DNA of 64,000 nt, from contig CAIKKJ010000054.1 in the NCBI GenBank assembly GCA_903827955.1, forward strand, positions 2,298 through 66,297, in the 5' to 3' direction. The DNA is from an uncultured Verrucomicrobia subdivision 3 bacterium (lineage in GTDB: Bacteria > Verrucomicrobiota > Verrucomicrobiia > Limisphaerales > UBA11358). This document shows, one piece after another, positions 1 through 51,458 of the stretch. The position numbers and the translations under genes are program-made. Position 1 is the first letter of the stretch. Every line of letters begins with the position of its first letter. The notes beneath the pieces are model-generated. The model searched no databases, was not told where the DNA came from, and saw nothing but the letters and a program-made list of their open reading frames with translations.

Positions 1-467
1 ACCATTCTGTGAGGTTCAGACAGCTTGAGCAAAGCTTCGTTCAATTTTTTTTGCAGTTCAGACAGGGCCACATCTCGGGTGGGGGTCTTGTCGGAAATCA
101 ACGCCATCAAGTCCGGATCGTGCTCGGCATTGAAATCAATGTCATTCAGGCTCAAATGAAATTTATTCTTTCGCTGCTTGAGAAAATTAATGGTCTTGTT
201 GACGGCAATCCGGTAGAGCCAAGTGTAAAAAGTAGATCCGCCCTTGAATGATTTGAGGGCGGAATAGGCTTTGATGAACGCTTCCTGTGCAAGATCATTG
301 GCATCTTCGTGATTCGAAGTCATGTGATAAACGGTGGCGTAAATACGCTCCTGATAACGCTTCACCAGTTCGTCGTAGGCTTGCAAATCACCGCGCTGTG
401 CGCGTTTGACAAGGTCACCCTCCAGCATGCCGGCGGGTGTGTTCGGGTTGGCGGCGGGTTCGGACAT
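1..467 (-). CDS. ECF-type RNA polymerase sigma-70 factor (C-terminus cut by window edge)
   Basis: Minus-strand ATG at 467-465. Translation MSEPAANPNTPAGMLEGDLVKRAQRGDLQAYDELVKRYQERIYATVYHMTSNHEDANDLAQEAFIKAYSALKSF..FYTWLYRIAVNKTINFL matches the sigma-70 region 2 pattern. It starts 3 nt after the stop of the upstream gene. Not in the ORF track because it runs off the edge. Confidence 0.8.
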   Translation of the reverse strand, partial: MSEPAANPNTPAGMLEGDLVKRAQRGDLQAYDELVKRYQERIYATVYHMTSNHEDANDLAQEAFIKAYSALKSFKGGSTFYTWLYRIAVNKTINFLKQRKNKFHLSLNDIDFNAEHDPDLMALISDKTPTRDVALSELQKKLNEALLKLSEPHRM

Positions 468-469
468 AG

Positions 470-1603
470 TCATTGAACCGCCAAGGCCGCAGTTTGTTGC
501 GCAAGAAAATCGGTCAATTGCAATAGGCCGGTGCGACCGGCGGAAACCGGCAACCCGCACAATGCTGACCGCGCCTGTTCCAGAAACTTTTCAATCTCCT
601 GCACCGATGGTTCAAAGACTTCGTATTTCGCGAGCAAGGCGTTAACCAACGACAGATTTTCCGGCTGCCAATTTTTGATGGCGGACTCCAGACTGGTGCG
701 GTCGGCGGCGTTGGCGCGCTCCCAAGCCAGCAGCAACGGCCAGGTTAACTTGCCTTTCGCCAGATCCGTGCCAAGTGATTTGCCTGCCTCGGCCTCGGTG
801 CCGAATAAATCTACACAGTCGTCGTAAACCTGATACGCCGTGCCGAATGCCGTGCCAAATTCCTTCAATGCCGTGCGTTGCGCCTCTGTTGCGCTGCTCA
901 AAAATGCGGCGAGATCGCAGGCCAAAGTGAATAGTTCGCCAGTCTTCATCTCAATGACGCGAAAATAATCTCGACGGGAGGCGATGAAATTTCTCCGCTG
1001 CTGGGTCTGAATGATTTCGCCGGTGCAAACCGTGTTCGTCGCGGCAGAAACCGCCCGGCATACTTCAGTCGTGGGAAAACTTGCGGCCAGTTTCAACGCT
1101 TGCGCAAAAAGACAGTCGCCAAAAAGCACGGCAATTTCGTTTCCCCACTTCGCCGCCACGGTCGGGCTGCCACGGCGGATGTCCGCCTCATCCATCACGT
1201 CGTCATGAACCAGCGTGGCAAGATGAACCATCTCGATGATGACCGCTGCTTTGACATGCGCCTCGTTGGGTTTGCCGAAACAGGCGGCGGCAAGCGATAC
1301 CAGCGTTGGCCGCAGGTGCTTGCCGCTGTTGTTCAATGCATGTTCAGCATAAGACACCACTTGCGGGTCAAAGTCACGTGCCTGACGCACCAATTGTTGC
1401 GTCACGGCCTGCAAAAATGGCTCGACCGGTTCCACGATTTTTTTCCAGGAACAGGCCGGGACAGTTTCGGAGGCATGGCCGGATTTCGCATCCGACAATT
1501 TGGTTTCAGCAGCCAGCATTGGCGGCAGCTTAAATTCAGCCGCGCGGCGAGTCAAACCTGTTAATTGCCATGCCGGCGGTTTGGCTTGAATTTCGGCGCA
1601 CAA
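470..1603 (-). CDS. polyprenyl diphosphate synthase (IspB/octaprenyl-type)
   Basis: Two aspartate-rich motifs are present: LVHDDVMDEADIRRG and YQVYDDCVD. The true start may be the internal MLAAETK (about 1519). Confidence 0.85.
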   Translation of the reverse strand: MCAEIQAKPPAWQLTGLTRRAAEFKLPPMLAAETKLSDAKSGHASETVPACSWKKIVEPVEPFLQAVTQQLVRQARDFDPQVVSYAEHALNNSGKHLRPTLVSLAAACFGKPNEAHVKAAVIIEMVHLATLVHDDVMDEADIRRGSPTVAAKWGNEIAVLFGDCLFAQALKLAASFPTTEVCRAVSAATNTVCTGEIIQTQQRRNFIASRRDYFRVIEMKTGELFTLACDLAAFLSSATEAQRTALKEFGTAFGTAYQVYDDCVDLFGTEAEAGKSLGTDLAKGKLTWPLLLAWERANAADRTSLESAIKNWQPENLSLVNALLAKYEVFEPSVQEIEKFLEQARSALCGLPVSAGRTGLLQLTDFLAQQTAALAVQ

Positions 1604-1643
1604 ACGGCATCATGCGTGCATCGTTAAAAACCATCCGTCGCCG

Positions 1644-2732
1644 ATGAAAAATAAATCACTGACCGTGCCGCTGTTGATGACCGCCTCGCTGGCCTCCGTC
1701 GTCGCCCTAAACTTGGGTTGCGGCAAAAACACTTCCGCCCACCCAGAATCAGGAGCCACGCCGGAAGCCGGGGTCAACCCGGGTGGAACCATGACAAATG
1801 GCAACCGCACGACCAACGGGACGGTTGCTGCCGCAGTTGACGCAACCCAACCAGCAATAACCGCAACGGTTGCAGAAATCACCAACCCGCCCGCCGCCGT
1901 GACCACAACCCCGGTGACTGCACCAGCTACCCCAGAAATCGCACCGACCGCCCCTGCCATTAAATCGCAAACCAAAGTGGTTGAGATGCCCGCCACGATT
2001 CCGGTCGCGCCAAAAAGTTTTTACTCGCAAAATTTTGCCACCAACCGCTGCGACGCCTCCGCGCATGAAGATTATTTCTTCACCTTGCGCGCCGGTTACG
2101 AACATTCCGGCTACGGCGATAACAGCGATACCTGGTATGCCGGCATCAAATTTTATGCGCATCCCGAAAAACTCCGCGAGCGCGCCGGCAAAAATGCCTG
2201 GCTCGTGCCAGACGCCGATGCGGAAATATCCCACCATTTTTTAGCCAAGCCAAACGGCACGGCCAATCCCGGCACGGGCGAAGGCCTCCGGCTGCGCGCG
2301 GATTTTTACTGGTCATGGATCAACTGGAACACCTGCGTTCTTTCTCGGGAAAATTGTGCGTGCCCGTTTGCCCGGCCACTCAAGTTTTCGTTCGGCCCGG
2401 TGTTCAGCACCGGCTTTGACAAGACTTTTGACGACAGCGGATTTCGCTTTGCCCGTTACGGCGGCGCGCGGCTGTCGGTCAACCGCTACGCCTTCGTTCA
2501 ATACACCTTTGGCGAAACCGACGGACTCGGCCATCAGCATCAGGAACTTTCCGGCGAAATTCCGTTCTACATCAGCCACGACCAGCAGGTGCGTTACGTC
2601 ATCCGTGGCGAATGGAACCGTGCCAATCATGGCCTGCCAGACTACTACCAGATCGGTGCGTTCGCAGAAATGCCGCTATCGTTGCTGGCTCGCCCGCGCG
2701 AATGGCATGATTTGATTCCGTTCGCGGATTGA
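1644..2732 (+). CDS. hypothetical lipoprotein
   Basis: Signal peptide with lipobox (LNLGC), a Pro/Thr/Ala-rich linker, then an aromatic-rich C-terminal domain. An intrinsic terminator follows. Confidence 0.6.
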   Translation: MKNKSLTVPLLMTASLASVVALNLGCGKNTSAHPESGATPEAGVNPGGTMTNGNRTTNGTVAAAVDATQPAITATVAEITNPPAAVTTTPVTAPATPEIAPTAPAIKSQTKVVEMPATIPVAPKSFYSQNFATNRCDASAHEDYFFTLRAGYEHSGYGDNSDTWYAGIKFYAHPEKLRERAGKNAWLVPDADAEISHHFLAKPNGTANPGTGEGLRLRADFYWSWINWNTCVLSRENCACPFARPLKFSFGPVFSTGFDKTFDDSGFRFARYGGARLSVNRYAFVQYTFGETDGLGHQHQELSGEIPFYISHDQQVRYVIRGEWNRANHGLPDYYQIGAFAEMPLSLLARPREWHDLIPFAD

Positions 2733-2752
2733 TTCAAATTTGCGACCAGAAA

Positions 2753-2788
2753 CGCCGGGCAGGAAATTCCTGCCGGCGTTTTATTTTT
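2753..2788 (+). terminator. rho-independent terminator
   Basis: GC stem cgccgggcagg / cctgccggcg with loop aaatt, followed by ttttattttt. Confidence 0.75.
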
Positions 2789-2912
2789 CGGCAACGATGT
2801 GTCTTGTCGTGTCAAAAACACGAACACACGCGGGCAATAAATGTCCAGTTGGCGGATTTTTGAGGCAATAATTGCTGGAATTTCAAAGGTTTAAGAAAAT
2901 TTTGCCCGTGGC

Positions 2913-3299
2913 ATGGATGTTGCAAATGTTCGGCGCATGAGAAACAATTCTTTTGATCGCGCCATGAGCCAGATTGTTGCCCAGGCGGAAGCCGAGCGGG
3001 AACAGGAAGTCAAAGCCATCCGCCGCGCCGAACTTTTGGGCCGGGTGCGCAGCGTGTTTGTCTGGCTGTTCCTCGCAACCATCCTCATCTTCGCCTATAA
3101 CTTTCACGACAAGCTGACCGACGTGATGGATGTCGTGATGCCCGCCAAAAAATCGAACATTCTGGCAGCTTCAACCATGGGAGGTTCTGCGACTTCCAAG
3201 GAACCCACCGGCCAGGCGGCAGTCGCCTTGCGCGGCGCGGCGCAGAACGCTGCTGTGCGCGACAATTTGATTGAGGCACTCTCCTCCAACGGAAAATAA
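2913..3299 (+). CDS. hypothetical single-pass membrane protein
   Basis: 128-aa ORF with one hydrophobic helix (VFVWLFLATILIFAY). No recognisable family. Confidence 0.45.
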   Translation: MDVANVRRMRNNSFDRAMSQIVAQAEAEREQEVKAIRRAELLGRVRSVFVWLFLATILIFAYNFHDKLTDVMDVVMPAKKSNILAASTMGGSATSKEPTGQAAVALRGAAQNAAVRDNLIEALSSNGK

Positions 3300-3307
3300 T
3301 CTAGCCG

Positions 3308-3757
3308 CTAGCCGGCGATGCCTCCGGCGATATATTGTTCCAATTGCTCAATCGCCGCGTTCTGCGTGGAGATGATCCAGTTCACCAAATCGCCGATGGA
3401 AATAATCCCGGCGACCTTGCCTTCCTCGACGACTGGCAGGTGACGCACGCGATTTTCTGTCATCAACTTCATGCAGTGTTCCACCGAATCTGTCGGTGTC
3501 ACCGTGATGACTTCTTTCGGCATAATTTCCCACACCTGCGTTTGTTTGGAATTTTTACCATGCAGCGCAATTTTTCGCGTATAATCGCGCTCGGAAAAAA
3601 TCCCTGCCAGCTTCCCGCCAGACATGACCAGCAGCGCGCCAATGTTTTTTTCCGACATCAATTTGATGGCGTCGAAAACCGTTGCATCCGGGGCGATATT
3701 CCAGAGCGCAGAAGTTTTGTGGTGAAGCAATGAGCTGATCGGGTAGGTTGTCTTCAT
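3308..3757 (-). CDS. CBS domain pair protein
   Basis: Tandem CBS-like repeats (..GALLVMSGGKLAGIFSERD.., ..HLPVVEEGKVAGIISIGDL..). Confidence 0.8.
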   Translation of the reverse strand: MKTTYPISSLLHHKTSALWNIAPDATVFDAIKLMSEKNIGALLVMSGGKLAGIFSERDYTRKIALHGKNSKQTQVWEIMPKEVITVTPTDSVEHCMKLMTENRVRHLPVVEEGKVAGIISIGDLVNWIISTQNAAIEQLEQYIAGGIAG

Positions 3758-3865
3758 AGGCTTATAGCTGTTATCTGCCCGTTCCGTAGATTATTCAAGT
3801 AAAATTATTCCGGCGGGAAAATGAATAAGCTTTCCCGCCCTGCCCGCTCCTGCCAGACTGTATAT

Positions 3866-5080
3866 ATGTCTACAATCAACGATACACTGCCAACTGTCCT
3901 CCTCAAACCGGGTGAAGCCGACCGCATTGTTGCCGGCCATCCATGGGTATATCAGAACGAAATCCTCCGCCTCACCCAAGAAACCGCTGACGGAGATTTG
4001 GTTCAGGTCAAAGACCACCGCCAGCGACTGCTCGGGGTGGGCTACTACAACTCCAAATCTAAAATCGGGATCCGCCTGCTCGCGCCGGATCGTATCCGGC
4101 CCAATGAGGAGTTTTTCGAGGAACGCATCCGCGCCGCACTCGCCGTGCGGAAAAAATTTATGCCGGATGCCACCTCATTCCGCGTGGTCAACGCCGAAAG
4201 CGATTTTTTGAGCGGCCTTATTGTGGACAAATACGAGGACGTCCTCGTCGTGCAAATTTCCGCACTGGGCATGGATCGGCGAAAACAGCATATCGTGGCC
4301 GCGCTGGAAAAAATATTTTCTCCGCGCGCCATCATGGAACGCAGCGATGTCGCCGCGCGCAAGTTTGAAGGATTGGAACCTGCCAATGGCATTCTCTCTG
4401 GTGAATCTGATGGAAAAATTTCCGTTAACCTGAACGGCCTGAAATTTGAAACCGACCTCATTGCCGGCCACAAAACCGGAATGTATCTCGACCAGCAGGC
4501 GAACTACCAAGCTGTCTCCCAATTTGCCAAAGGCGGAAACGTCCTCGACTGCTTTAGTTTTCTTGGCGGGTTTGGCTTGCACGCCGCCCGCGCCGGCGCA
4601 GCACAAGTCCGATTGCTCGACCAGAGCGCGGACGCCATCGCCGCCTCCGAACGGAACGCCAAGACGAACGGCCTTGAAAAAAACTGCGCATTTGAGACGG
4701 TTAATGTTTTTGACTGGCTCAAGTTGAATACTGCCGTGAAGCCACACGAACGCGTCATTCCACGCTTTGATCTCATCATCCTCGACCCGCCGTCTTTCAC
4801 CCGCAACCGCGCTTCGGTGCCTGACGCGCTTCGCGGCTACAAGGAAATTCATCTACGTGCGCTTAAACTTTTGAAGCCCGGCGGCACGCTGGCAACCTTC
4901 TGCTGCTCGCACCACGTCAACACGGAATTATTTCAGGACTCACTGCTCTCGGCAGCATTCGATACGCGCCACGTATTGCGCCGCGTAGCAACTTACGCAC
5001 AAAGTCCTGACCATCCAATCATACCCATGATTCCCGAAACAGAATACCTGAAGGGCTTCGCCTTTGAAAAAGTCCGGTGA
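3866..5080 (+). CDS. rlmI: class I SAM-dependent rRNA (cytosine-C5) methyltransferase, RlmI-like
   Basis: PUA-like N-terminus LLKPGEADRIVAGHPWVYQNEI, SAM-binding core VLDCFSFLGGFG and IILDPPSF. The ORF opens at 3821, but the internal Met at 3866 fits the family N-terminus better. Confidence 0.8.
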   Translation: MSTINDTLPTVLLKPGEADRIVAGHPWVYQNEILRLTQETADGDLVQVKDHRQRLLGVGYYNSKSKIGIRLLAPDRIRPNEEFFEERIRAALAVRKKFMPDATSFRVVNAESDFLSGLIVDKYEDVLVVQISALGMDRRKQHIVAALEKIFSPRAIMERSDVAARKFEGLEPANGILSGESDGKISVNLNGLKFETDLIAGHKTGMYLDQQANYQAVSQFAKGGNVLDCFSFLGGFGLHAARAGAAQVRLLDQSADAIAASERNAKTNGLEKNCAFETVNVFDWLKLNTAVKPHERVIPRFDLIILDPPSFTRNRASVPDALRGYKEIHLRALKLLKPGGTLATFCCSHHVNTELFQDSLLSAAFDTRHVLRRVATYAQSPDHPIIPMIPETEYLKGFAFEKVR

Positions 5081-5162
5081 GTAACCTTGCCTAAACAATC
5101 CGAGAACAACTCTGATTATGATTTCGTGGCTGGGGGCATGTGGGTAATGTGCTAGGGAAAGC

Positions 5163-5440
5163 CCACATGAAAACAGATTAAACCTCACCAAACACAACGT
5201 TACGCAGCCTTTAAGCATTCAGCCGTGGAAGAAGGAATGCTCCGTCTGGAGTATTGCTGCGGAATCGAGCATCAATGAGCAAAGCCTGCATAAATGGAGA
5301 CAACAGTTCAAGGTGTCGCCGCCAGTCAACCGGGTTGCCGGGACGTTGGATCAACTCAAGCGGAGAGCTGCCGATTGCCGCACCGGATGATGCAGCTGCG
5401 GGACATTCTAAAAAAGGTGCAGGTTCAGAACATGGGTGAC
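5163..5440 (+). pseudogene. IS3-family OrfA (HTH) remnant, frameshifted
   Basis: One frame reads ..ECSVWSIAAESSINEQSLHKWRQQFK..LDQLKRRAADCRTG*. A second frame continues MMQLRDILKKV, the pattern of IS3 OrfA (HTH, leucine zipper, ERDILKKA). No OrfB follows. Confidence 0.55.
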
Positions 5441-5535
5441 GGGGATGGTTCAGGATACAAAACACTTAAAGAAGGTAATCCCGAGCGATAGGCTTCGGAA
5501 TGTCTTGGAAAACGAGTGAACCTAATTGAGTTGCA

Positions 5536-5782
5536 ATGAAAGCGCTGCGGACGGAGAGCTTCCGTGCGTTGTGTGCCGAATACGGGCTACAAGTGGCTGG
5601 ATCGGTTGCTGCGCTGGGGCGTGCAAGGTCTGGCGGAGCAATCACGCTGGCCCCACAACCTTCCAGAGCAATTGAACTCGGAGGTGGTCTGCAAGATGGT
5701 GCGGCCAAACAGCTTCACCCGCATTGAGGACCGCGCAAGATTCGGGCATTATATCAGCGTATCCACGGACAGGCTACCTCGG
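5536..5782 (+). pseudogene. IS481-like transposase N-terminal remnant (frameshifts plus TGA in place of Trp)
   Basis: Pieces lie in two frames: SFRALCAEYG / TGYKWLDRLLRWGVQGLAEQSRWPHNLPEQLNSEVVCKMV / KQLHPH*GPRKIRAL. The catalytic core is absent, and the fragment abuts the IS4 fragment. Confidence 0.55.
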
Positions 5783-6570
5783 TTAGCCGATGCGGCGCAT
5801 GAGGACGGGATAATCGTGCTGGGCCTTCAAGCCGGTCATCACGACGGTCTGGTCGAAACGCAATCCGGTGGTTTTGTCAACAGGCCGGGAGTAACGGCGG
5901 GCGCACCGGAAGTTTTGTTTGGCCCGGGTGACGAAGAACGCGCCGCATTGATGCAGCCGATGCCAGCGGGCAAGTCGAGATAGTCGCGGTCCATGATGTA
6001 AAACGAACCGGCTTCCCAGACCAGTTGGTCGAGGATGTTTACGTCATGCACACTGCCGGTGGAGACAATGATGACGGTGGGAAAGTTGCCCTGGAGGGTC
6101 AGCAGGGTGTGGAGTTTTATAGCGGCCTTGTGCCGACGGAAGTTGGCCCACGGAAAGAGCGAGAGGCAGAGGTCTATGGCGGTGGAGTCCAGCGCGTAAG
6201 CCGCCGCTTGGAGTTCAAAGTGAAAGGGTTCATCGGCGTAGAGCGCGGTGGCTTGCCGGATGAGGACGTGGGCGAAATCGGCAAAGATACGCCAGTCCCG
6301 CTTTTCATTGGCCACCGCCAACGTGTTGCGCGCGGTGGGTTGCCGGATGCCGGCGTGATAGAGCTTCGGGCCGAAGGCCGCCAGACAGGTTTCGATGTCG
6401 CGCAAACTTTCGCGCCACGTCAGTTGAGCAAACGCCAGCACGAGGAACTGTTCGTAGGTGGGCAGCTTGCGGACGCGGAAGTTGCCGTGGTAGCGGGCGA
6501 CACACTTGTCGAACTCGTATTTGGGCAGGAAGCTGAGGAGTTGGGCTAAGACGGTGCGACCTTCGTTCAT
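5783..6570 (-). pseudogene. IS4-family DDE transposase, frameshifted near 5975 and 3'-truncated
   Basis: N-terminus MNEGRTVLAQLLSFLPKYEFDKCVARYHGNFRVRKL... After FYIMDRDYLD the homologous reading continues in another frame (LARWHRLHQCGAFFVTRAKQNFRCARRYSRPVDKTTGLRFDQTVVMTGLKAQHDYPVLMRRIG*) and ends well before the expected C-terminal part of the DDE domain. Confidence 0.7.
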
Positions 6571-6889
6571 AAGGTGAAAAACTGCTGAAGTGCGGTGGAA
6601 CACCCTCGGAGAGGCGTCGCAGAGTTGAAATCAAAAAATGACCAGACAGCGGTTTTATCCAGATTTTACAATGGTAAAATCGCTGTCAGAAAAAACTAAA
6701 CGGACAGCATTGGTGTTACCTTTGTTCTGACTGCGCTAAAAACACTCATGCCTTCCACACTCACCTCCTGTCCACCAAATCAAGGCATAAGCATAATCCC
6801 AAAAACAGGCAAAAATAAGTTGTGCCATTTCGTTTTACTGTTATTTTTCCGGTGCTGTATTTTTTTTGTGGTAGTTTTTCATTATAAAT

Positions 6890-6967
6890 CGGGGCGTAGC
6901 GTAGTCTGGCTAGCGCGCTTGTTTCGGGTACAAGAGGTCGTGAGTTCGAATCTCACCGCCCCGACCA
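6890..6967 (+). tRNA. tRNA-Pro (anticodon CGG), CCA encoded
   Basis: Folded by hand. Acceptor CGGGGCG/CGCCCCG, anticodon stem CTTGT/ACAAG with loop TTCGGGT, T-arm GTGAG-TTCGAAT-CTCAC, discriminator A, CCA. Confidence 0.9.
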
Positions 6968-7076
6968 TTTTTAAAGGTTTTTTTGAAGGTTTGACACTTG
7001 AGCACACGGGAAGTCTTGAATAACGAGCCACTAAAGTTTGCGTTTTCGCCCGATGAGGCATTACAGAAATGTGCCT

Positions 7077-7215
7077 TCACCAAACTACCAATGAGCCGTA
7101 AGAAGTCAGTCAAAACCCGACTCAAGTCCCGTTAATCTTTTAGCCGATTCACCAAGCTGCCAACGAGCCGCAAGAAGTCGGTCAAAACTCGCCTAAAGTC
7201 CCGTTAATCTTCTAA
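7077..7215. repeat. tandem duplication, two units of about 71 bp (about 86% identical)
   Basis: Unit 1 is ttcaccaaactaccaatgagccgtaagaagtcagtcaaaacccgactcaagtcccgttaatctttt. Unit 2 is ttcaccaagctgccaacgagccgcaagaagtcggtcaaaactcgcctaaagtcccgttaatcttct. Confidence 0.85.
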
Positions 7216-7432
7216 GCAATTGCAATCAATGCCTTGCAACTATTCAAGTTTGATTTGTGCATAATCCGCAAATTAAGAGTTCACTTTTCCTTGACCGGTA
7301 GATGAAAAGATCTCATAGTCCTCGAATAACCACGAGGGATGACTATTGGTGTATTGTGATGGCTTGATGAACACGACTGAATCAGATGTGTTCATTTCAC
7401 TTTCTCCAACCTCGCAAATCAGGAGCTTAGCT

Positions 7433-45578: not shown

Positions 45579-47630
45579 TCAGCCGGCAGGCGCCGGTGCC
45601 GGTGTGCCGAGGCCACCGGGCAATTTCGGCGGTGCGGGCTTGGGCGGTGTTTCCGGCAACGGCGTGCCGGCGGGCGCGCCCATCATCGGCTTGAGATCCA
45701 CCGGCGGCTTGGGCGGCGGCGTAAATGTTCCGGTGCGCACGATGTCCGCCACCTGCGCGCCGTCGAGGGTTTCGTATTCCAGCAAACTATTGGCGATGAT
45801 TTCCAGCTTGTCGCGGTTCTCATCAATCAATTTTTTGGCGGTGTTGTAACCGTCGTCCACCAAGCGTTTCACTTCGGCGTCAATGGCCTTGGCGGTTTCT
45901 TCGCTGTATTCCTTGGAACGCTTCATGTCGCGTCCGAGAAAAACATATTCCTCGCTGTCGCCATAAAGCACGTTGCCCAATTTGTCGCTCATGCCCCAGT
46001 GCATGATCATGGCCTTGGCCATTTGCGTGGCCATCTGGATATCGCCAGACGCGCCGGAGGAGATGTCATCAGTGATGATCTCTTCGGCGATACGTCCGCC
46101 CATCGCCACCGCAAGATCATCCACCAACTGTTTCTTGCGCTGGCTCAAGATATCCTGCTTCGGCAGCATCATCGTCACACCCAGCGCGCGGCCGCGGGGA
46201 ATAATCGTGACCTTGTGCAGCGGATGCGTGTGCTTGAGCAGCACGTTGACGAGCGCGTGGCCGGCTTCGTGCCAGGCCGTGCCGCGTTTTTCCTCGTCGG
46301 ACATTGCCATACTGCGACGTTCGCGGCCCCAGCGGACTTTATCGCGCGCTTCTTCCAATTCCAATTGATCCACGGATTTCTTGTTCGTGCGCGCGGCGAG
46401 CAACGCAGCTTCGTTCAACAAATTGGCCAGCTCCGCGCCGGAGTAGCCGGGCGTGCCGCGCGCGATGATGGACAAATCCACATTCGGCGCGAGCTTCACA
46501 TTCTTGGCGTGAACCTTCAAAATCGCTTCGCGTCCGCGCACATCGGGCAGGTTCACCGTGACTTGACGGTCAAAGCGTCCGGGACGCAACAGCGCGGGAT
46601 CGAGCACATCGGGACGATTCGTTGCGGCGATGATGATGATGCCTTCCTGCGTGTCAAAGCCGTCCATCTCCACGAGCAACGCATTCAACGTCTGTTCGCG
46701 TTCGTCGTTGCCGCCGCCGAGGCCGTGGCCGCGGGAACGACCGACGGCGTCAATTTCATCAATGAAAATCAAGCACGGTGTGCTCTTGCGCGCCTGTTCA
46801 AACATGTCGCGCACGCGGCTGGCGCCCACGCCGACGAACATTTCCACAAAGTCCGAACCGCTGATGCTGAAGAACGCCGCGTCCGCCTCGCCCGCGATGG
46901 CTTTGGCCAAAAGCGTTTTGCCGGTTCCCGGCGGTCCGATCATCAAGACGCCTTTCGGAATGCGGCCACCGAGGCGCTGAAATTTTTTCGGATCTTTCAA
47001 GAAGTCCACGAGCTCGGAAACTTCCTCCATCGCTTCTTCCACGCCGGCGACGTCTTTGAACGTCGTCTTGTTGCGTTCCTTGGCGAGCATCTTCGCCTTG
47101 CTCTTGCCGAAGCTCAACGCGCCTTTGCCCGCCGCTTTGATCTGGCGGATGAAGAAAAACCAGAACAACACGCCGAGAATCAAAAATGGCGCGATACCCC
47201 AGATGACATTTTGCACCATGACGTTCGGCGACGTCGCTTCAATCCGGTCGGAAACGAGCAACTGATCGAGCATTTTTTGGGTGAGCAAAACATTCGGCGC
47301 GGAAAACCGAGTTTCTTCCTTGGTCGGCTTGCCGTCCTTGTCCGCCTTGAATAGCGTGCCGGTGATGGGCGTCAGTTGCGACGTCTGGTTGCCCAGATTA
47401 ATCTTGGCATGGGCGACGAAGTTCGACTGAAACAGCGCCAGAAATTCCGATTGCTGGATTTCTTTAGCCTCCGAAGTGGGCATCCGCCCCCGCATGGCCA
47501 CCAGCGCGACTGTGGCCGCGATGATGCCCGCCCACGCCAGCAGCGTGAACGTGGGAATTTTGAAACCACCGCCGTCGCCAGCCGATTTTTTATCAGCGGG
47601 CTTTTTGTTGGAAGAATCGTCGTCGAACAT
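45579..47630 (-). CDS. ftsH: ATP-dependent zinc metalloprotease FtsH
   Basis: [13 protein letters not shown], the SRH region, and HEAGHAL. Confidence 0.97.
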
Positions 47631-47690
47631 TTTGCCGCCAAAATATCACGCCATTCCCGCTTCTGCAATGCGTGAATTCAGCCGGTCATT

Positions 47691-47738
47691 TCCTAATCTT
47701 AAGCCGGCTCCTCCTCATCCTCGCCTAAGATTAGGCCT
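47691..47738. repeat. degenerate palindrome cctaatctta / taagattagg with internal GCCTAAGATTAGGC
   Basis: 10-bp arms with a 25-nt loop, resembling decayed core/inverse-core motifs. Confidence 0.6.
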
Positions 47739-47818
47739 CAAGACCCCCAACGAAGTCTACTACGAACAACCACCCTTTTGTCGCACTACAAATGTGAAAC
47801 TAAACGGCGTAAATAATC

Positions 47819-48001
47819 TCATGGCCTTTTTTCTAACTGCTCGATGCGACTTTCCAGGGAAGCAACTTTTGCTTCCAACTCTTTCTTGGAGTATTTGCTG
47901 CCGAATAGCTTGGCAATCCAATCCTGAATCCCCGTGATGCTGAGAATAATAAGGCAGATGGTAATCGAAATAGCCCAATCAACAAGTCTGTCTGGTGTCA
48001 T
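47819..48001 (-). CDS. cassette ORF: small single-TM protein with C-terminal coiled coil
   Basis: MTPDRLVDWAISITICLIILSITGIQDWIAKLFGSKYSKKELEAKVASLESRIEQLEKRP. An alternative GTG start lies at 48031. AT-rich codon usage. Confidence 0.5.
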   Translation of the reverse strand: MTPDRLVDWAISITICLIILSITGIQDWIAKLFGSKYSKKELEAKVASLESRIEQLEKRP

Positions 48002-48038
48002 AATGTTTGTGTGTTTTGTTTTTGTTGTCACGCGAGCC

Positions 48039-48182
48039 GCCTAACATCCAAACCTGAGCCACCGCCGAGTCTTAGCAGACTGCCACCCAGCGTGAACCGC
48101 GACAGCGGAACCCGTAGCACGGTGGCAGCCAGCGCCATCGGCTAGGTGGCCGTCCGCAAGGACCTCCAGCGAGTGGTTAGGC
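48039..48182 (-). repeat. attC-like structured repeat, copy A (144 bp)
   Basis: On the minus strand it reads GCCTAAC ... GTTAGGC. It shares a 90-bp core (1 mismatch) with copy B, and the TAA stop of the upstream ORF lies inside GCCTAAC. Confidence 0.55.
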
Positions 48183-48584
48183 CTCTTCGTCTGGGGGAGT
48201 CTTCTTGTTGAGTCGCCGCACTTTGGCGATGCCTTGAATGGCCATCCAGATGCCAATTATACCAACGATTTCTGGAATCGCCAAATAGCTGCCCCCCGCA
48301 CGGGTATAAAACCGAACTGCCCAACCGACAAGGAACAGACCGAGCAAGGCCACTGCAATCCAGGCAATTAACATGCCTCGCTTTATAGAGTCCGGGCGCA
48401 TTTTCGATAGAAAGTGCCAGGGCTGCTTTCGGGTCACATAAACACCTGCCATAACTGAAACTCCAACTACCAAGATCCACCAAGTTTCAAGGACCAATCC
48501 GAAAAAGCACCCAACGACGGCGACAGCAACTACGAACATCCCGTCGAGCGTCATCTTTTTCTCCGGCTGTTTGTTGCCGCGCAT
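48177..48584 (-). CDS. cassette ORF: four-TM membrane protein
   Basis: MRGNKQPEKKMTLDGMFVVAVAVVGCFFGLVLETWWILVVGVSVMAGVYV... The longer track ORF (to 48704) would read through the repeat and was rejected. Confidence 0.6.
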   Translation of the reverse strand: MRGNKQPEKKMTLDGMFVVAVAVVGCFFGLVLETWWILVVGVSVMAGVYVTRKQPWHFLSKMRPDSIKRGMLIAWIAVALLGLFLVGWAVRFYTRAGGSYLAIPEIVGIIGIWMAIQGIAKVRRLNKKTPPDEEA

Positions 48585-48604
48585 TTGGTTTGGTGTGCGA
48601 TGAA

Positions 48605-48733
48605 GCCTAACGACCAAACCTGAGCCACCGCCGAGTCTTAGCAGACTGCCACCCGGCGTGAACCGCGACAGCGGAACCCGTAGCACGGTGGCAGCCAGCG
48701 CCAACGGCGGTTGGCTCCGGCGAATGGTTAGGT
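48605..48733 (-). repeat. attC-like structured repeat, copy B (129 bp)
   Basis: On the minus strand it reads ACCTAAC ... GTTAGGC and starts 4 nt after the stop of the S26-like ORF. Confidence 0.55.
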
Positions 48734-48737
48734 GGCG

Positions 48738-49238
48738 TCATTTGTCTCTCACTCTACCTAAAATGCTCTGCTTCGGCAACGCACCCCAAAAGCGGCTGTC
48801 GAATGAATTCGTGGTATTGTCACCGACTAGGAAATACGTGTCGGCTGCAATTTTATATGGATAAGAAACAACTGGGAAGGGTGAGTGGGGAATACTAGCA
48901 TCGTAGTGAATACCTGCCAACCTGTCGGGCTGTGCTTCGCGTTTTCCATCAATGTAAATACCATCGGCTCGAATCTCCAAACTCTCTCCTGGAAGGCCGA
49001 TAACTCGCATGACCCAAATCTCCTGCGGCTGCGTCAATGTCTCTTTCGGTGGAGGGTGGAACACGACAACATCCCATCGCTGCGGCTCACTCTTACGAAA
49101 CGCAGACATATCGGCGACGACGCTCTCATTCGGCTGGATGGTCGGTGACATGGCTGACGACCCGCTTTGGCGGAAACATCGCTCGGAACATCCGCTGATT
49201 AAAACCAGAAGCGTGAGAATGATGATGGATGTGCGCAT
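48738..49238 (-). CDS. cassette ORF: S26 signal-peptidase-I-like lipoprotein
   Basis: Lipobox LISGC, Ser box GSSAMSPTI, VMRVIGLPGE, and GDNTTNSFDSRFWG. Confidence 0.7.
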   Translation of the reverse strand: MRTSIIILTLLVLISGCSERCFRQSGSSAMSPTIQPNESVVADMSAFRKSEPQRWDVVVFHPPPKETLTQPQEIWVMRVIGLPGESLEIRADGIYIDGKREAQPDRLAGIHYDASIPHSPFPVVSYPYKIAADTYFLVGDNTTNSFDSRFWGALPKQSILGRVRDK

Positions 49239-49242
49239 AGCC

Positions 49243-49357
49243 GCCTAACAGTAATATTAACCCTTAAAAGTGTGGTTTATCACTTTCATTGATTTTGACC
49301 TTAGTTGAGGGTTTTTTCCCTGTCAAGCAAGGGGGTTTGGAAAATCTTCGGGGTGAA
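49243..49357 (-). other. possible attI-like junction (GTTAGGC core 4 nt upstream of the first cassette ATG, plus AT-rich spacer)
   Basis: On the minus strand ...ttaatattactGTTAGGCggctATG. It lacks the 90-bp attC-like core found at the other two junctions. Confidence 0.3.
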
Positions 49358-49514
49358 ATGTCACTGCAGAAAACCGCAGTTGAGGGCTTGGTGCCCAATC
49401 CCAAGTTGCGCTTGCGGGAGCAGGTCAGGAGGTGCGGCGCCGCCGGTTCTTGGGGGCGTGGGCGAACCACCGCCAGCGTGTATCCGTCACGACCAGCGGG
49501 CAGTCATTTAACCC

Positions 49515-49750
49515 TCCCAACCGGCCAAAACAGTCACCGGTAGGGACGCTGCGCGGCGGCGTCCTTCCGCTGGCGCTTCCCTGTTTTAAGCCAGCGGAAT
49601 CCCAAAAACCGCCCGCCAAGAAAAGGAAAGCGCGGGCGGGGACGGCCCAGCGGTCCGTCCCTACCTGCGGCAGGGCGTAAGGTGGATTGGGGCAAACACC
49701 GCAGGTCATTGCCAGCGGGTGGCCTTTTCGCCTTCCCAACCGGCCAAAAC
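49515..49750. repeat. multi-hairpin GC-rich element flanked by 17-bp perfect direct repeats (tcccaaccggccaaaac)
   Basis: The direct repeats lie at 49515-49531 and 49734-49750. The interior holds at least five stems of 6-9 bp, including gtagggacg/cgtccctac. Confidence 0.8.
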
Positions 49751-49766
49751 GGTCAAAACGGGGTTT

Positions 49767-50081
49767 TTTAATCAAAATCGCCGGTTTTAGACTTAAAATC
49801 GTCAAAACATAGTCATGATTGATTAAAACATAGTTATGTTTCGCGGATTTATAGTCTGGAATCGGCGGGGAATAGTCATGTTTTGAGCAAACATAGTGAT
49901 GTTTCGGCCAGCCATAATCATGTTTTGCCGGAACATAATCTGGAATCGGCAAATCCAAGTCATGGATCGGCCGGGGATGACTTGGAATCGTGGCGGGATG
50001 ATTTGGTTTTGGTGAATCATAATCTGGATTTATCGCGGAATAATCTGGTTTGGGAAAAAGAAGATTTTCCGACGACGGGGA
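49767..50081. repeat. degenerate tandem array with strict 21-bp period (12 clear units at 49809-50060, weaker units on both sides)
   Basis: Units start atagtcatg / atagtctggaatcggc / ataatcatgttttgccgg, and so on. The consensus is roughly ATARTCWKGDWTYGGC plus 5 nt. Confidence 0.85.
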
Positions 50082-50237
50082 GGGAAATCTTTTAGACAGA
50101 ATTAACCGGATTCACAGAATTTTAAGGCAGAAAGGCCGGCAGCTTTGGCTGACTACAAGTTATTTTGGGAATGCTTAGCGTGCCGTCACAAGGTTGCGCG
50201 CTTTTATTTTTTTCACGTTTGTTTATCATCCGCGCCG

Positions 50238-51458
50238 ATGTTGGGAACGCTGCGCAAAGCCGAATACGCCGAGCTGATGATTTTATTTTTCATCCAGGCG
50301 GCCGGCATGGCCATCTGGTTCGTGCCGCTCGGCCCGATTCTGGACGCGCACGGGCTGCATGAGATCAAGCCCTACGCCTTTGCCTCGCTGGCGGTGGCGG
50401 CGTTCATTTCCCCGTTGATTTTTGGCGCGATGGCCGACCGGCATGTGCCGCCGGCCAAAGTCTTGCGCTGGCTGGCCGTCGCCTCGGCGGTGCTGATGGC
50501 GGGCATCAGCACGGCGCTGAAATTTGAATTGAACCGCTGGCTGGTGCTAGGCCTCATCCAAATTTTTTATCTCTTTTACTCGCCGATGTTCAGCATCTCC
50601 ACGGCCATCGTGCTGGCGCGGCTGGCGGATGCCAAAAAAGAATACGGCCCCATCCGGTCGCTGGCGACGTTCGGCTGGATGGGCGGCGCGCTGCTGGTCA
50701 GCGCGCTGGCGCTGGATCATTCGGCCTATGCCGGATACCTCGGCGCTGTAGTCTGGCTGTTGGTGGCGGCGTTTACTTATTTTCTGCCCACGCTGGAAAT
50801 GCCGGCGGCGGCGGAAAATCTTTCGTGGCGCGAACGGCTGGGCCTCGATGCGCTCACGCTGTTGAAGAACCGCGAGACGCGCGTGGTGTTTCTGATGACC
50901 ACGCTGTTCAACATCCCGCTCTGCGCCTTTTATCCCTACGCGCCGACGCAGTTGCATGAACTCGGTTACGAGCGCACGAGCGCGTGGATGAGTTTGGCGC
51001 AGACGACGGAGATCATTGCGATGTTCAGCCTGGCGTGGATGCTGCATCACTGGCGATTGAAATGGGTCTTCGCCTGCGGCCTGGGCATCGGCGTGGCGCG
51101 GTTCGCTTTAAGCGCGATGAATGATGAAAGATTTCTGCTGCTGGGCATCGCGCTGCACGGCGCGTCGTTCGTGCTGGTGTTCATCACGGCGCAGATTTAC
51201 CTCGACCAGCAGATTGACCCGGCGTGGCGGGCGCGGGCGCAGGCGCTGCTGACGCTGATGAACGGCGGCTTCGGCAACCTCATCGGCTATCTCGGCACGG
51301 GCTGGTGGTTCGCGGCCTGCACTAAAAGCACCGGCACGCATTGGCCGTGGTTCTGGGGCAGGTTGACGCTGGTGATCATCGGCGTGCTGTTTTATTTTCT
51401 CGCAACGTTCCGCGACCAGAAAATCCAGATGAACAGAAATGGAGTTGCCACCAAATGA
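50238..51458 (+). CDS. MFS transporter (12 TM)
   Basis: Polytopic protein of 406 aa from the internal Met, with an MFS-like duplicated 6-TM organisation. Substrate unknown. Confidence 0.75.
   Translation: MLGTLRKAEYAELMILFFIQAAGMAIWFVPLGPILDAHGLHEIKPYAFASLAVAAFISPLIFGAMADRHVPPAKVLRWLAVASAVLMAGISTALKFELNRWLVLGLIQIFYLFYSPMFSISTAIVLARLADAKKEYGPIRSLATFGWMGGALLVSALALDHSAYAGYLGAVVWLLVAAFTYFLPTLEMPAAAENLSWRERLGLDALTLLKNRETRVVFLMTTLFNIPLCAFYPYAPTQLHELGYERTSAWMSLAQTTEIIAMFSLAWMLHHWRLKWVFACGLGIGVARFALSAMNDERFLLLGIALHGASFVLVFITAQIYLDQQIDPAWRARAQALLTLMNGGFGNLIGYLGTGWWFAACTKSTGTHWPWFWGRLTLVIIGVLFYFLATFRDQKIQMNRNGVATK

Follow-up and report, generated by a model that had tools for sequence, protein, structure and literature searches.

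Upstream of ftsH in the genome of an uncultured bacterium of Verrucomicrobia subdivision 3, two nearly identical repeats stand one behind each of two small genes, and the question is what kind of element they are. The window, meaning the whole stretch of DNA analysed, is 64,000 nt long (64 kb; positions 2,298 to 66,297 of contig CAIKKJ010000054.1, assembly GCA_903827955.1), and its FtsH places the host among uncultured subdivision-3 Verrucomicrobia, with 79% identity to the top match. A first-pass annotation, made from the letters alone, took the repeats for attC-like sites that fold as single strands. That reading is supported by the occurrence of the same family beside integrases, by detection with an independent model, by covariation and by the geometry of the bulged bases. 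Very probably, the repeats are the attC sites of two cassettes in a three-gene, integrase-less chromosomal array, that is, a cluster of attC sites without an integron integrase (CALIN), upstream of ftsH. Elements of this kind are well known; what is new here is the little-studied Verrucomicrobial lineage.

Repeat A occupies 48039-48182 (144 nt) and repeat B 48605-48733 (129 nt), both read here on the plus strand. Without gaps they align over 104 nt, 48039-48142 against 48605-48708, with 100 of 104 positions matching and four mismatches; within this the core of 48048-48137 against 48614-48703 has the single difference that had been reported for it, A at 48089 and G at 48655. Only these two copies occur in the window, where a core 21-mer is found twice and none is expected from shuffled sequence. 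A direct check located every motif named in the first-pass annotation: the hairpin AGTCT-TAGC-AGACT (48068-48081 and 48634-48647), the 8-bp stem CTGCCACC/GGTGGCAG (the GGTGGCAG arm at 48121-48128 and 48687-48694), the left-arm segment GAGCCACCGCCG (48056-48067 and 48622-48633), its right-arm partners CGGCGGTTGGCTC in B (48705-48717) and TCGGCTAGGTGGC in A (48138-48150), and the mini-hairpin GTCC-GCAA-GGAC of A (48152-48163). The termini are GCCTAAC...GTTAGGC in A and GCCTAAC...GTTAGGT in B. The helices described earlier reappear in DNA folds of the plus strand: the inner 8-bp stem, the 7-bp helix at the ends and the stem formed by GAGCCACCGCCG. Compared with shuffles, the folds of the two elements have z-scores of -2.7 and -3.3.

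The original argument for a conserved fold does not hold. The copies were said to diverge completely beyond the core, which is wrong, since a gapped alignment pairs the right arm of A with that of B through three indels and a few substitutions: the A arm runs CGGC(+TA)GGT(-T)GGC, then a 13-nt insertion bearing the GTCC-GCAA-GGAC hairpin, then CTCCAGCGAGTG-GTTAGGC against TCCGGCGAATG-GTTAGGT in B. Because the left arms are identical in A and B, the comparison of the two contains no compensatory change; with homologous right arms and zero two-sided changes, pairing in both copies is not valid evidence of a conserved fold. The evidence comes instead from relatives of the two repeats.

A family of covarying attC sites

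A search with FtsH brought in 80 related ftsH loci (about 1.3 Mb). Two of these, L012 and L021, hold shorter copies of 90-99 nt whose arms are near-identical to those of the window, and a 26-mer invariant in these copies led on to IMG/VR contigs, where it picked out 12 loci; in many of them several copies follow one another in one orientation, 300-700 nt apart. On the strand that corresponds to plus in the window, the family unit reads GCCTAAC-GAAAAAA-GCT-GAGCCA-CCGCCG-(variable)-CGGCGG-T-TGGCTC-C-GGC-GACTT-GTTAGGC. A covariance model, R1, was built from 20 copies outside the window and served as a family-specific model in place of curated attC models; a second family covariance model, R2, was used beside it. 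R1 finds exactly two sites in the window, both at full length: B with 74.3 bits (E 2.5e-20), on the plus strand only, and A with 26.3 bits (E 1.6e-5), also on the plus strand. R2 gives them 80.5 and 45.7 bits. After the last small open reading frame (ORF) of the array, where a third attC might stand, R1 has no match at E ≤ 10 in the window.

Across 1.49 Mb of loci, R1 finds 51 sites, and the family amounts to 50-51 matches in 16 sources, which are Verrucomicrobial metagenome-assembled genomes (MAGs) and phage-like contigs. In each source with multiple matches all sites lie on one strand, at spacing typical of cassettes. Members occur in only three of the 80 related ftsH loci, clustered and co-oriented. 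Their length is 89-144 nt, with a loop region of 32 to 83 nt, and 45-48 of about 49 copies retain the AAC/GTT pairs. A search of JGI metagenomes with the pattern GCCTAACNNCCAAACCTGAGCC returned one chance match, between hpf and mgtE; the spacer in the pattern proved variable.

Genomic copies had been proposed as the place to look for covariation, and across about 50 of them the outcome is strongly positive. All 12 pairs of the L stem show two-sided changes, with 87 cells against 19.5 ± 3.6 in shuffled alignments and no more than 18 when pairing partners are slid. When the 3-bp proximal stem is included, 17 of 22 pairs covary (117 cells against 26.9 in shuffles). Compensatory replacements include CCGCCG/CGGCGG to CGGGCG/CGCCCG, CCCGCG/CGCGGG and CGCCGA/TCGGCG in the inner stem, and GAGCCA/TGGCTC to CAGGCA/TGCCTG and GACCTA/TAGGTC in the outer one. 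RNAalifold finds the same L stem unprompted.

In published attC sites the R' box of the bottom strand reads RYYYAAC, and the arm that faces AAC bears extrahelical bases close to L'' (Nivina et al. 2016, PMC5027507). These bases occupy positions 16, usually G, and 23/24, T, and must be separated by a 6-bp stem; the sites also have an unpaired spacer of 5-6 nt and a variable terminal structure, and total 57-141 bp (PMC5027507). The family has the same hairpin plan of L box, spacer and variable terminal structure. Its L stem is 3 + 6 + 6 bp, flanked by spacers of 7 nt on the R' side and 5 nt on the other. On the 3' arm two bases stay unpaired: a T in 46 of 50 copies, at position 23 counted from the 3' end, and a C, also in 46 of 50, at position 16; the 6-bp stem separates them. 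Position and spacing of the bulged bases thus match the published bottom strands, a comparison that the first-pass annotation had suggested. Since the extrahelical bases lie on the arm opposite AAC in the published geometry, the plus strand of the window is the bottom strand, and the gene-bearing minus strand is therefore the top strand, the normal cassette orientation. Plus-strand G.T pairs number 49 against 20 A.C pairs across the family. Assignment of the strand from R-box variability was abandoned, as both ends vary in diverged copies.

One site outside the window departs from the plan at its ends. At 4856-4954 of the phage-like contig L096 the attC body is perfect; the R'' end is TTACGGAC and not GTTAGGC, and R' is GCGGAAC. 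The boundary of an array may lie here, or recombination with some other kind of site may have taken place.

Cassettes and junctions in the window

All genes around the repeats are on the minus strand, according to both the ORF list and external gene calls, and the three ORFs of the array are thus on the strand expected for top-strand cassettes. The first encodes a protein like signal peptidases of the S26 type (49238 to 48738; Pfam Peptidase_S26, E 3.6e-31), the second a 135-aa membrane protein (48584 to 48177) and the third 60-70 aa (48031 to 47819, 3' of attC A). The array lies just upstream of ftsH (47630 to 45579). One repeat element sits directly 3' of each of the first two ORFs. G+C content is about 0.58 in general and drops to 0.43-0.55 over 47600-50150.

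From the canonical cut position (PMC5027507), cassette 1 is predicted to span 48611-49249 on the minus strand, with the S26 ORF and attC B, its 5' end being placed at a lone half-site; the stop codon of the ORF is 4 nt from R'' of attC B. Cassette 2, at 48045-48610 on the same strand, holds the 135-aa ORF and attC A, and its 566 bp equal the spacing of the repeats. The TAA stop of this ORF lies inside R'' of attC A (GCC-TAA-C).

Homologues of the cassette-2 protein, 65-87% identical, occur on short contigs, and they have different neighbors. In L102 and L103 the gene stands behind a DUF4304 protein and an unrelated ORF, and in L100/L101 the homologue is in yet another array. Family attCs in these arrays have the same top-strand orientation, and in two contexts they lie 3' of the gene, strongly or weakly detected. 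Homology of the 5' leader begins exactly at G↓TTAGRC, the arrow marking the crossover point, in the window (G↓TTAGGC-TTCATCGCACACCAAACCAA-ATG), in L103 (G↓TTAGGC-CACATCGAGCACCAAGCCAG-ATG) and in L102 (G↓TTAGAC-CGCTTTGCACACCCAACCAA-ATG). On the 5' side of that point the three have unrelated attCs. As read from these alignments, homology that breaks at G↓TT is what integrase-mediated cassette movement predicts.

Site B keeps the full canonical attC geometry. By convention it is assigned to the minus strand as top strand, the recombinogenic bottom strand being plus, and both R1 and R2 recognize it. On the plus strand it consists of R' GCCTAAC (48605-48611, which would be cut between 48610 and 48611), an unpaired spacer (48612-48618), the 3-nt L-proximal stem (48619-48621, partner GGC 48719-48721), the 6-bp stem GAGCCA (48622-48627) with TGGCTC (48712-48717), the inner stem CCGCCG (48628-48633) with CGGCGG (48705-48710), the variable terminal structure (48634-48704), the extrahelical T of position 23 (48711) and C of position 16 (48718), both in unpaired family columns, the spacer GAATG (48722-48726) and R'' GTTAGGT (48727-48733).

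Site A, likewise assigned to the minus strand as top strand, is a deviant member of the family by both models and by gapped alignment to B and to the family, and it scores among the lowest of the full-length matches. It reads R' GCCTAAC (48039-48045), GAGCCACCGCCG (48056-48067), the extended variable terminal structure that B also has, TCGGC-TA-GGTGGC (48138-48150), the 13-nt insertion, CTC (48164-48166), extrahelical C (48167), AGC (48168-48170), spacer GAGTG (48171-48175) and R'' GTTAGGC (48176-48182).

Family alignments show an extension of the variable terminal structure in the window copies only (48068-48128 in A, 48634-48694 in B). It is made of the AGTCT-TAGC-AGACT hairpin and the CTGCCACC/GGTGGCAG stem, wrapped around the family-wide core CGGCGTGAACCGCGACAGCGGAAC. 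Two loop blocks of about 15 nt in A and B are absent from every other family copy aligned, so the two sites are each other's closest relatives. This is in line with the finding that attCs are more alike within arrays than between arrays (PMC4889954). An exact 21-mer from the shared loop has no match in the genome contig collection, and neither an exact 20-mer of the loop nor either cassette protein finds anything in viral contigs. The common left arm and loop extension point to local duplication or homogenisation. Copy A as a chimera, with a cassette-specific arm on an otherwise B-like site, is not supported; its likeness to the L100/L101 arm is general family resemblance.

At the 5' side of the array a lone GCCTAAC half-site (top strand GTTAGGC) lies at 49244-49250 on the minus strand, without an attC body and 5 nt ahead of the S26 start codon. 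From its position it is the array's probable 5' junction, and it could be an attI/cassette junction. Its likeness to the intI-side junction of L093 (TTACTG↓TTAGGC) covers few letters and does not reach significance against shuffles, nor does any attI homology of the window junction to L093 or L012. An identical 10 nt, TTAGGCGGCT on the top strand, follows the crossover both at the start of cassette 1 (49240-49249) and in the segment after attC A (48035-48044); the gene bodies of cassette 1 and of the segment after attC A are otherwise unrelated.

At the 3' side, the small ORF at 47819-48031 is either the last cassette, now without its site, or a gene resident upstream of ftsH; no homologue of it was found in the 80 related ftsH loci. 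Between this ORF and the region upstream of ftsH lies a 10-bp hairpin, CCTAATCTTA...TAAGATTAGG, at 47695-47745. It folds, and its two ends look like R boxes in which AAT/ATT stands for AAC/GTT. It was not counted as a third attC: it lacks AAC/GTT, spacer, bulges and attC body, and the family model is negative.

Two further repeat structures lie beyond the other end of the array. At 49486-49755 there is a GC-rich composite with two 51-nt direct repeats (78% identical) around a 26-nt inverted repeat (49539-49564 and 49640-49665). The stretch is rearranged or duplicated in one metagenomic contig (L003) and has no Rfam match. Over 49851-50006, inside a 900-nt non-coding stretch upstream of a nucleoside:H+ symporter gene (50145-51458), sequence units such as ATAGTCATGTTTTGACCAAAC and ATAATCTGGAATCGGC recur with a periodicity of 21 nt and 42 nt; these could be a set of protein-binding sites.

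Integrases, objections and rival explanations

A tblastn search with an IntI1 sequence, used as a lead only, matched three loci that hold the family, L093, L091 and L012. The L093 gene (5006-5983) scores 263.8 bits on the NCBIfam integron integrase model TIGR02249, 1.2 bits below its cut-off of 265, against 125.7 bits on XerC, the best of the Xer models. The genes in L012 and L091 are partial, and TIGR02249 is their best match. Integron integrases thus flank family arrays in three related loci. L012, the chromosomal MAG contig CAVXRE010000017.1, has a complete integron at 1-7231 in the classical divergent layout: intI is on one strand, a GTTAGGC precedes its start codon by 270 nt, and the opposite strand carries the cassettes, which have family attCs. 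A sigma-70 gene and an IS66 transposase break up this integron, in which at least six such attCs are present. The L012 integron lies about 9.5 kb upstream of ftsH and is co-directional with it, like the window array, and family attCs upstream of ftsH also occur in L014 (492-617) and L021 (4291-6342). This suggests that the site upstream of ftsH is an old sedentary integron location in the clade, with an integrase-less remnant in the window genome.

The window itself has no intI gene or remnant by tblastn with three IntI queries; over 49200-50200 only noise was seen, even at E 100. Annotation of the window shows no recombinase gene near the array, which is thus not a complete integron, with intI and attI beside the cassettes. 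A CALIN is defined as at least two attC sites within 4 kb with no integron integrase nearby (Cury et al. 2016, IntegronFinder, PMC4889954). By that definition the locus is a CALIN, with its two attCs 566 bp apart and no intI or remnant.

A mechanism can be drawn by inference from characterised integrons. The plus (bottom) strand, when single-stranded, would fold into a hairpin with the 7-bp R box (GCCTAAC/GTTAGGY), an unpaired central spacer, the L stem and the long variable terminal structure. The L stem would carry the extrahelical C (16) and T (23) with the 6-bp stem between. The R and L boxes would be the binding sites of an integron integrase, presumably provided in trans, whose cut at GCCTAA↓C would fall between A and C. 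Either cassette, 1 or 2 (the latter 48045-48610), could then leave as a circle or be exchanged with other arrays. By this analogy the array may still be active today.

Several observations weigh against so simple an account. No integrase lies within 48 kb of the array on one side or 15 kb on the other. At least 14 metagenomic contigs with the same locus show no population variation beyond scaffold Ns and one or two single-nucleotide polymorphisms, and excision or rearrangement variants of the array, looked for among them, were not seen. The family has C at position 16, where G is usual, and a 7-nt spacer on the R' arm, where 5-6 nt are usual. Its pair counts come from model-fitted alignments and are biased towards the structure of the model. 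Folding of both strands, a check suggested at the outset, reproduced the helices, and in minimum free energy the plus strand is not favored (-32.3 against -34.7 kcal/mol for B, -30.4 against -34.6 kcal/mol for A). In several phage-like arrays the genes are opposite in strand relative to attC, unlike in the window, L012 and L021, so gene orientation is not a fixed property of the family. Site A adds difficulties of its own. It keeps C16, but T23 is lost, a TA bulge is gained and the 6-bp stem is split by the 13-nt hairpin. An alternative pairing, GCCACC/GGTGGC, TA bulge and GCCGA/TCGGC, restores a 6-bp stem flanked by two unpaired features, with the register off by 2 nt, so that B and the family have the published extrahelical arrangement and A has it only in a shifted register. 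In length, B (129 nt) is inside the reported range of 57-141 and A (144 nt) is just above it. With this changed arm, A is probably a weaker recombination substrate than B. It looks like a structurally deviant, possibly impaired site, and not like a second equally good solution.

Of the other explanations, the one that survives best, though very improbable, is that the hairpins act mainly as RNA, as intercistronic terminators, processing sites or mRNA stabilisers, and resemble attC incidentally. The place of each element directly 3' of an ORF fits such a role, stems covary as in RNA structure, and attCs have been proposed as weak terminators (in a passage of PMC9892861 that cites the proposal). 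On the coding strand, however, no terminator-like site of stem and T-run coincides with either element, and Rfam, which holds no attC family, gave no match even at E ≤ 1. The extrahelical T and C and the excess of G.T pairs are on the plus strand, here the non-coding one, and in phage-like arrays with genes on the other strand the elements keep their orientation relative to intI. An RNA role also leaves the AAC/GTT core, the integrase association and the homology breaks at G↓TT unexplained. An additional RNA-level effect such as weak termination may accompany attC function.

Less probable still is that the elements are attachment sites of a phage lysogeny integrase and the array the scar of a prophage. 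The family is frequent on phage-like IMG/VR contigs, where PHROG matches include a RecT-like protein (3e-65), PAPS reductase (8e-30), DNA methyltransferase (5e-27) and phrog_3193 (5e-43). On L088, L090, L092 and L093, family attCs separate phage-type genes on the bottom-strand side, and at 3249-5983 of L093 the integron-type integrase stands in one block with phage-type genes, all read in one direction. Lysogeny needs one attP per phage, however, whereas these loci have 3-7 sites, each of which delimits one small gene. The integrase is much closer to the integron subfamily than to Xer or phage types, L012 is chromosomal with a divergent intI/cassette layout, the window flanks have no phage genes, and the integrase link and the homology breaks at G↓TT are left unexplained; integrons and CALINs on bacteriophage genomes, moreover, are already documented (Qi et al. 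2023, PMC9892861). Least credible of all is a non-integron palindromic repeat spread by a transposase or REP-associated enzyme (repetitive extragenic palindrome, REP; bacterial interspersed mosaic element, BIME; miniature inverted-repeat transposable element, MITE), for although the elements are imperfect palindromes with inverted termini, repeated intergenically and in some arrays near IS66 fragments, they are clustered and co-oriented in three of 80 ftsH loci and not dispersed, they have conserved ends around a middle that varies (89 to 144 nt in total), the opposite of what MITE copies show, target-site duplications were not seen, the neighboring enzyme, where present, is an integron-type tyrosine recombinase, and the integrase link and the breaks at G↓TT go unexplained.

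Beyond the reading of the locus as a CALIN, one attC family on both chromosomes and phage-like contigs hints at a route of cassette exchange between phage and host. A broader reading, which we regard as speculative and rather doubtful, would join these observations: subdivision-3 Verrucomicrobia and their phages would share one attC family and one integrase type, cassettes would move between phage and chromosome, phage integrases would service integrase-less arrays in trans, phage cassettes with their genes on the bottom-strand side would be read by transcription towards intI, and site A would be a natural variant of integrase tolerance.

Comparison with known integrons

Taken alone, the window holds an ordinary CALIN with cassettes of unknown function. 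As in the CALINs described previously (PMC4889954), two co-oriented attCs stand 566 bp apart, each behind a small gene, with no intI or pseudogene nearby and with cassettes of unknown function that hold no resistance genes. Unlike a typical CALIN, it belongs to an uncultured subdivision-3 Verrucomicrobium, opens with a lone R-box half-site, ends in a gene without attC and has one deviant site of its two. Integrons as such were already reported from Verrucomicrobia (PMC4889954).

Phage integrons (PMC9892861) resemble the phage-like contigs of the family, L088-L099, which have attC arrays with methyltransferase cassettes and in one case an integron-type integrase. They differ from the window, which is without phage genes, and from several L088-L099 arrays, whose genes are on the attC bottom-strand side.

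Taxon-specific attC models have been published for 11 taxa, with none for Verrucomicrobia (Ghaly et al. 2021, PMC8352920), and the present work adds a covariation-supported attC family from that phylum, with a model usable for cassette finding in soil and freshwater metagenomes. Like Vibrio cholerae repeats (VCR) and other taxon-specific attCs (PMC8352920), the family shows high identity within the lineage, long branched variable terminal structures and more likeness within arrays than between them, the loop extension of A and B being seen nowhere else. Unlike them, it lies outside the 11 modelled taxa, has C and not G at position 16, has a 7-nt spacer on the R' side and is common to chromosomal arrays and phage-like contigs.

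The closest comparison is with the characterised sites attCaadA7, attCoxa2 and VCR2 (PMC5027507). Unlike these, the family is known from sequence alone, and copy A, a natural variant with an insertion in the spacer stem, has a 13-nt hairpin in its 6-bp stem and a TA bulge replacing T23. Like these, the family has RYYYAAC/GTTRRRY boxes, an unpaired central spacer, a variable terminal structure and extrahelical bases at 16 and 23 opposite AAC, with a 6-bp stem between. The canonical geometry of 16 and 23, 6 bp apart, thus holds far outside Proteobacteria.

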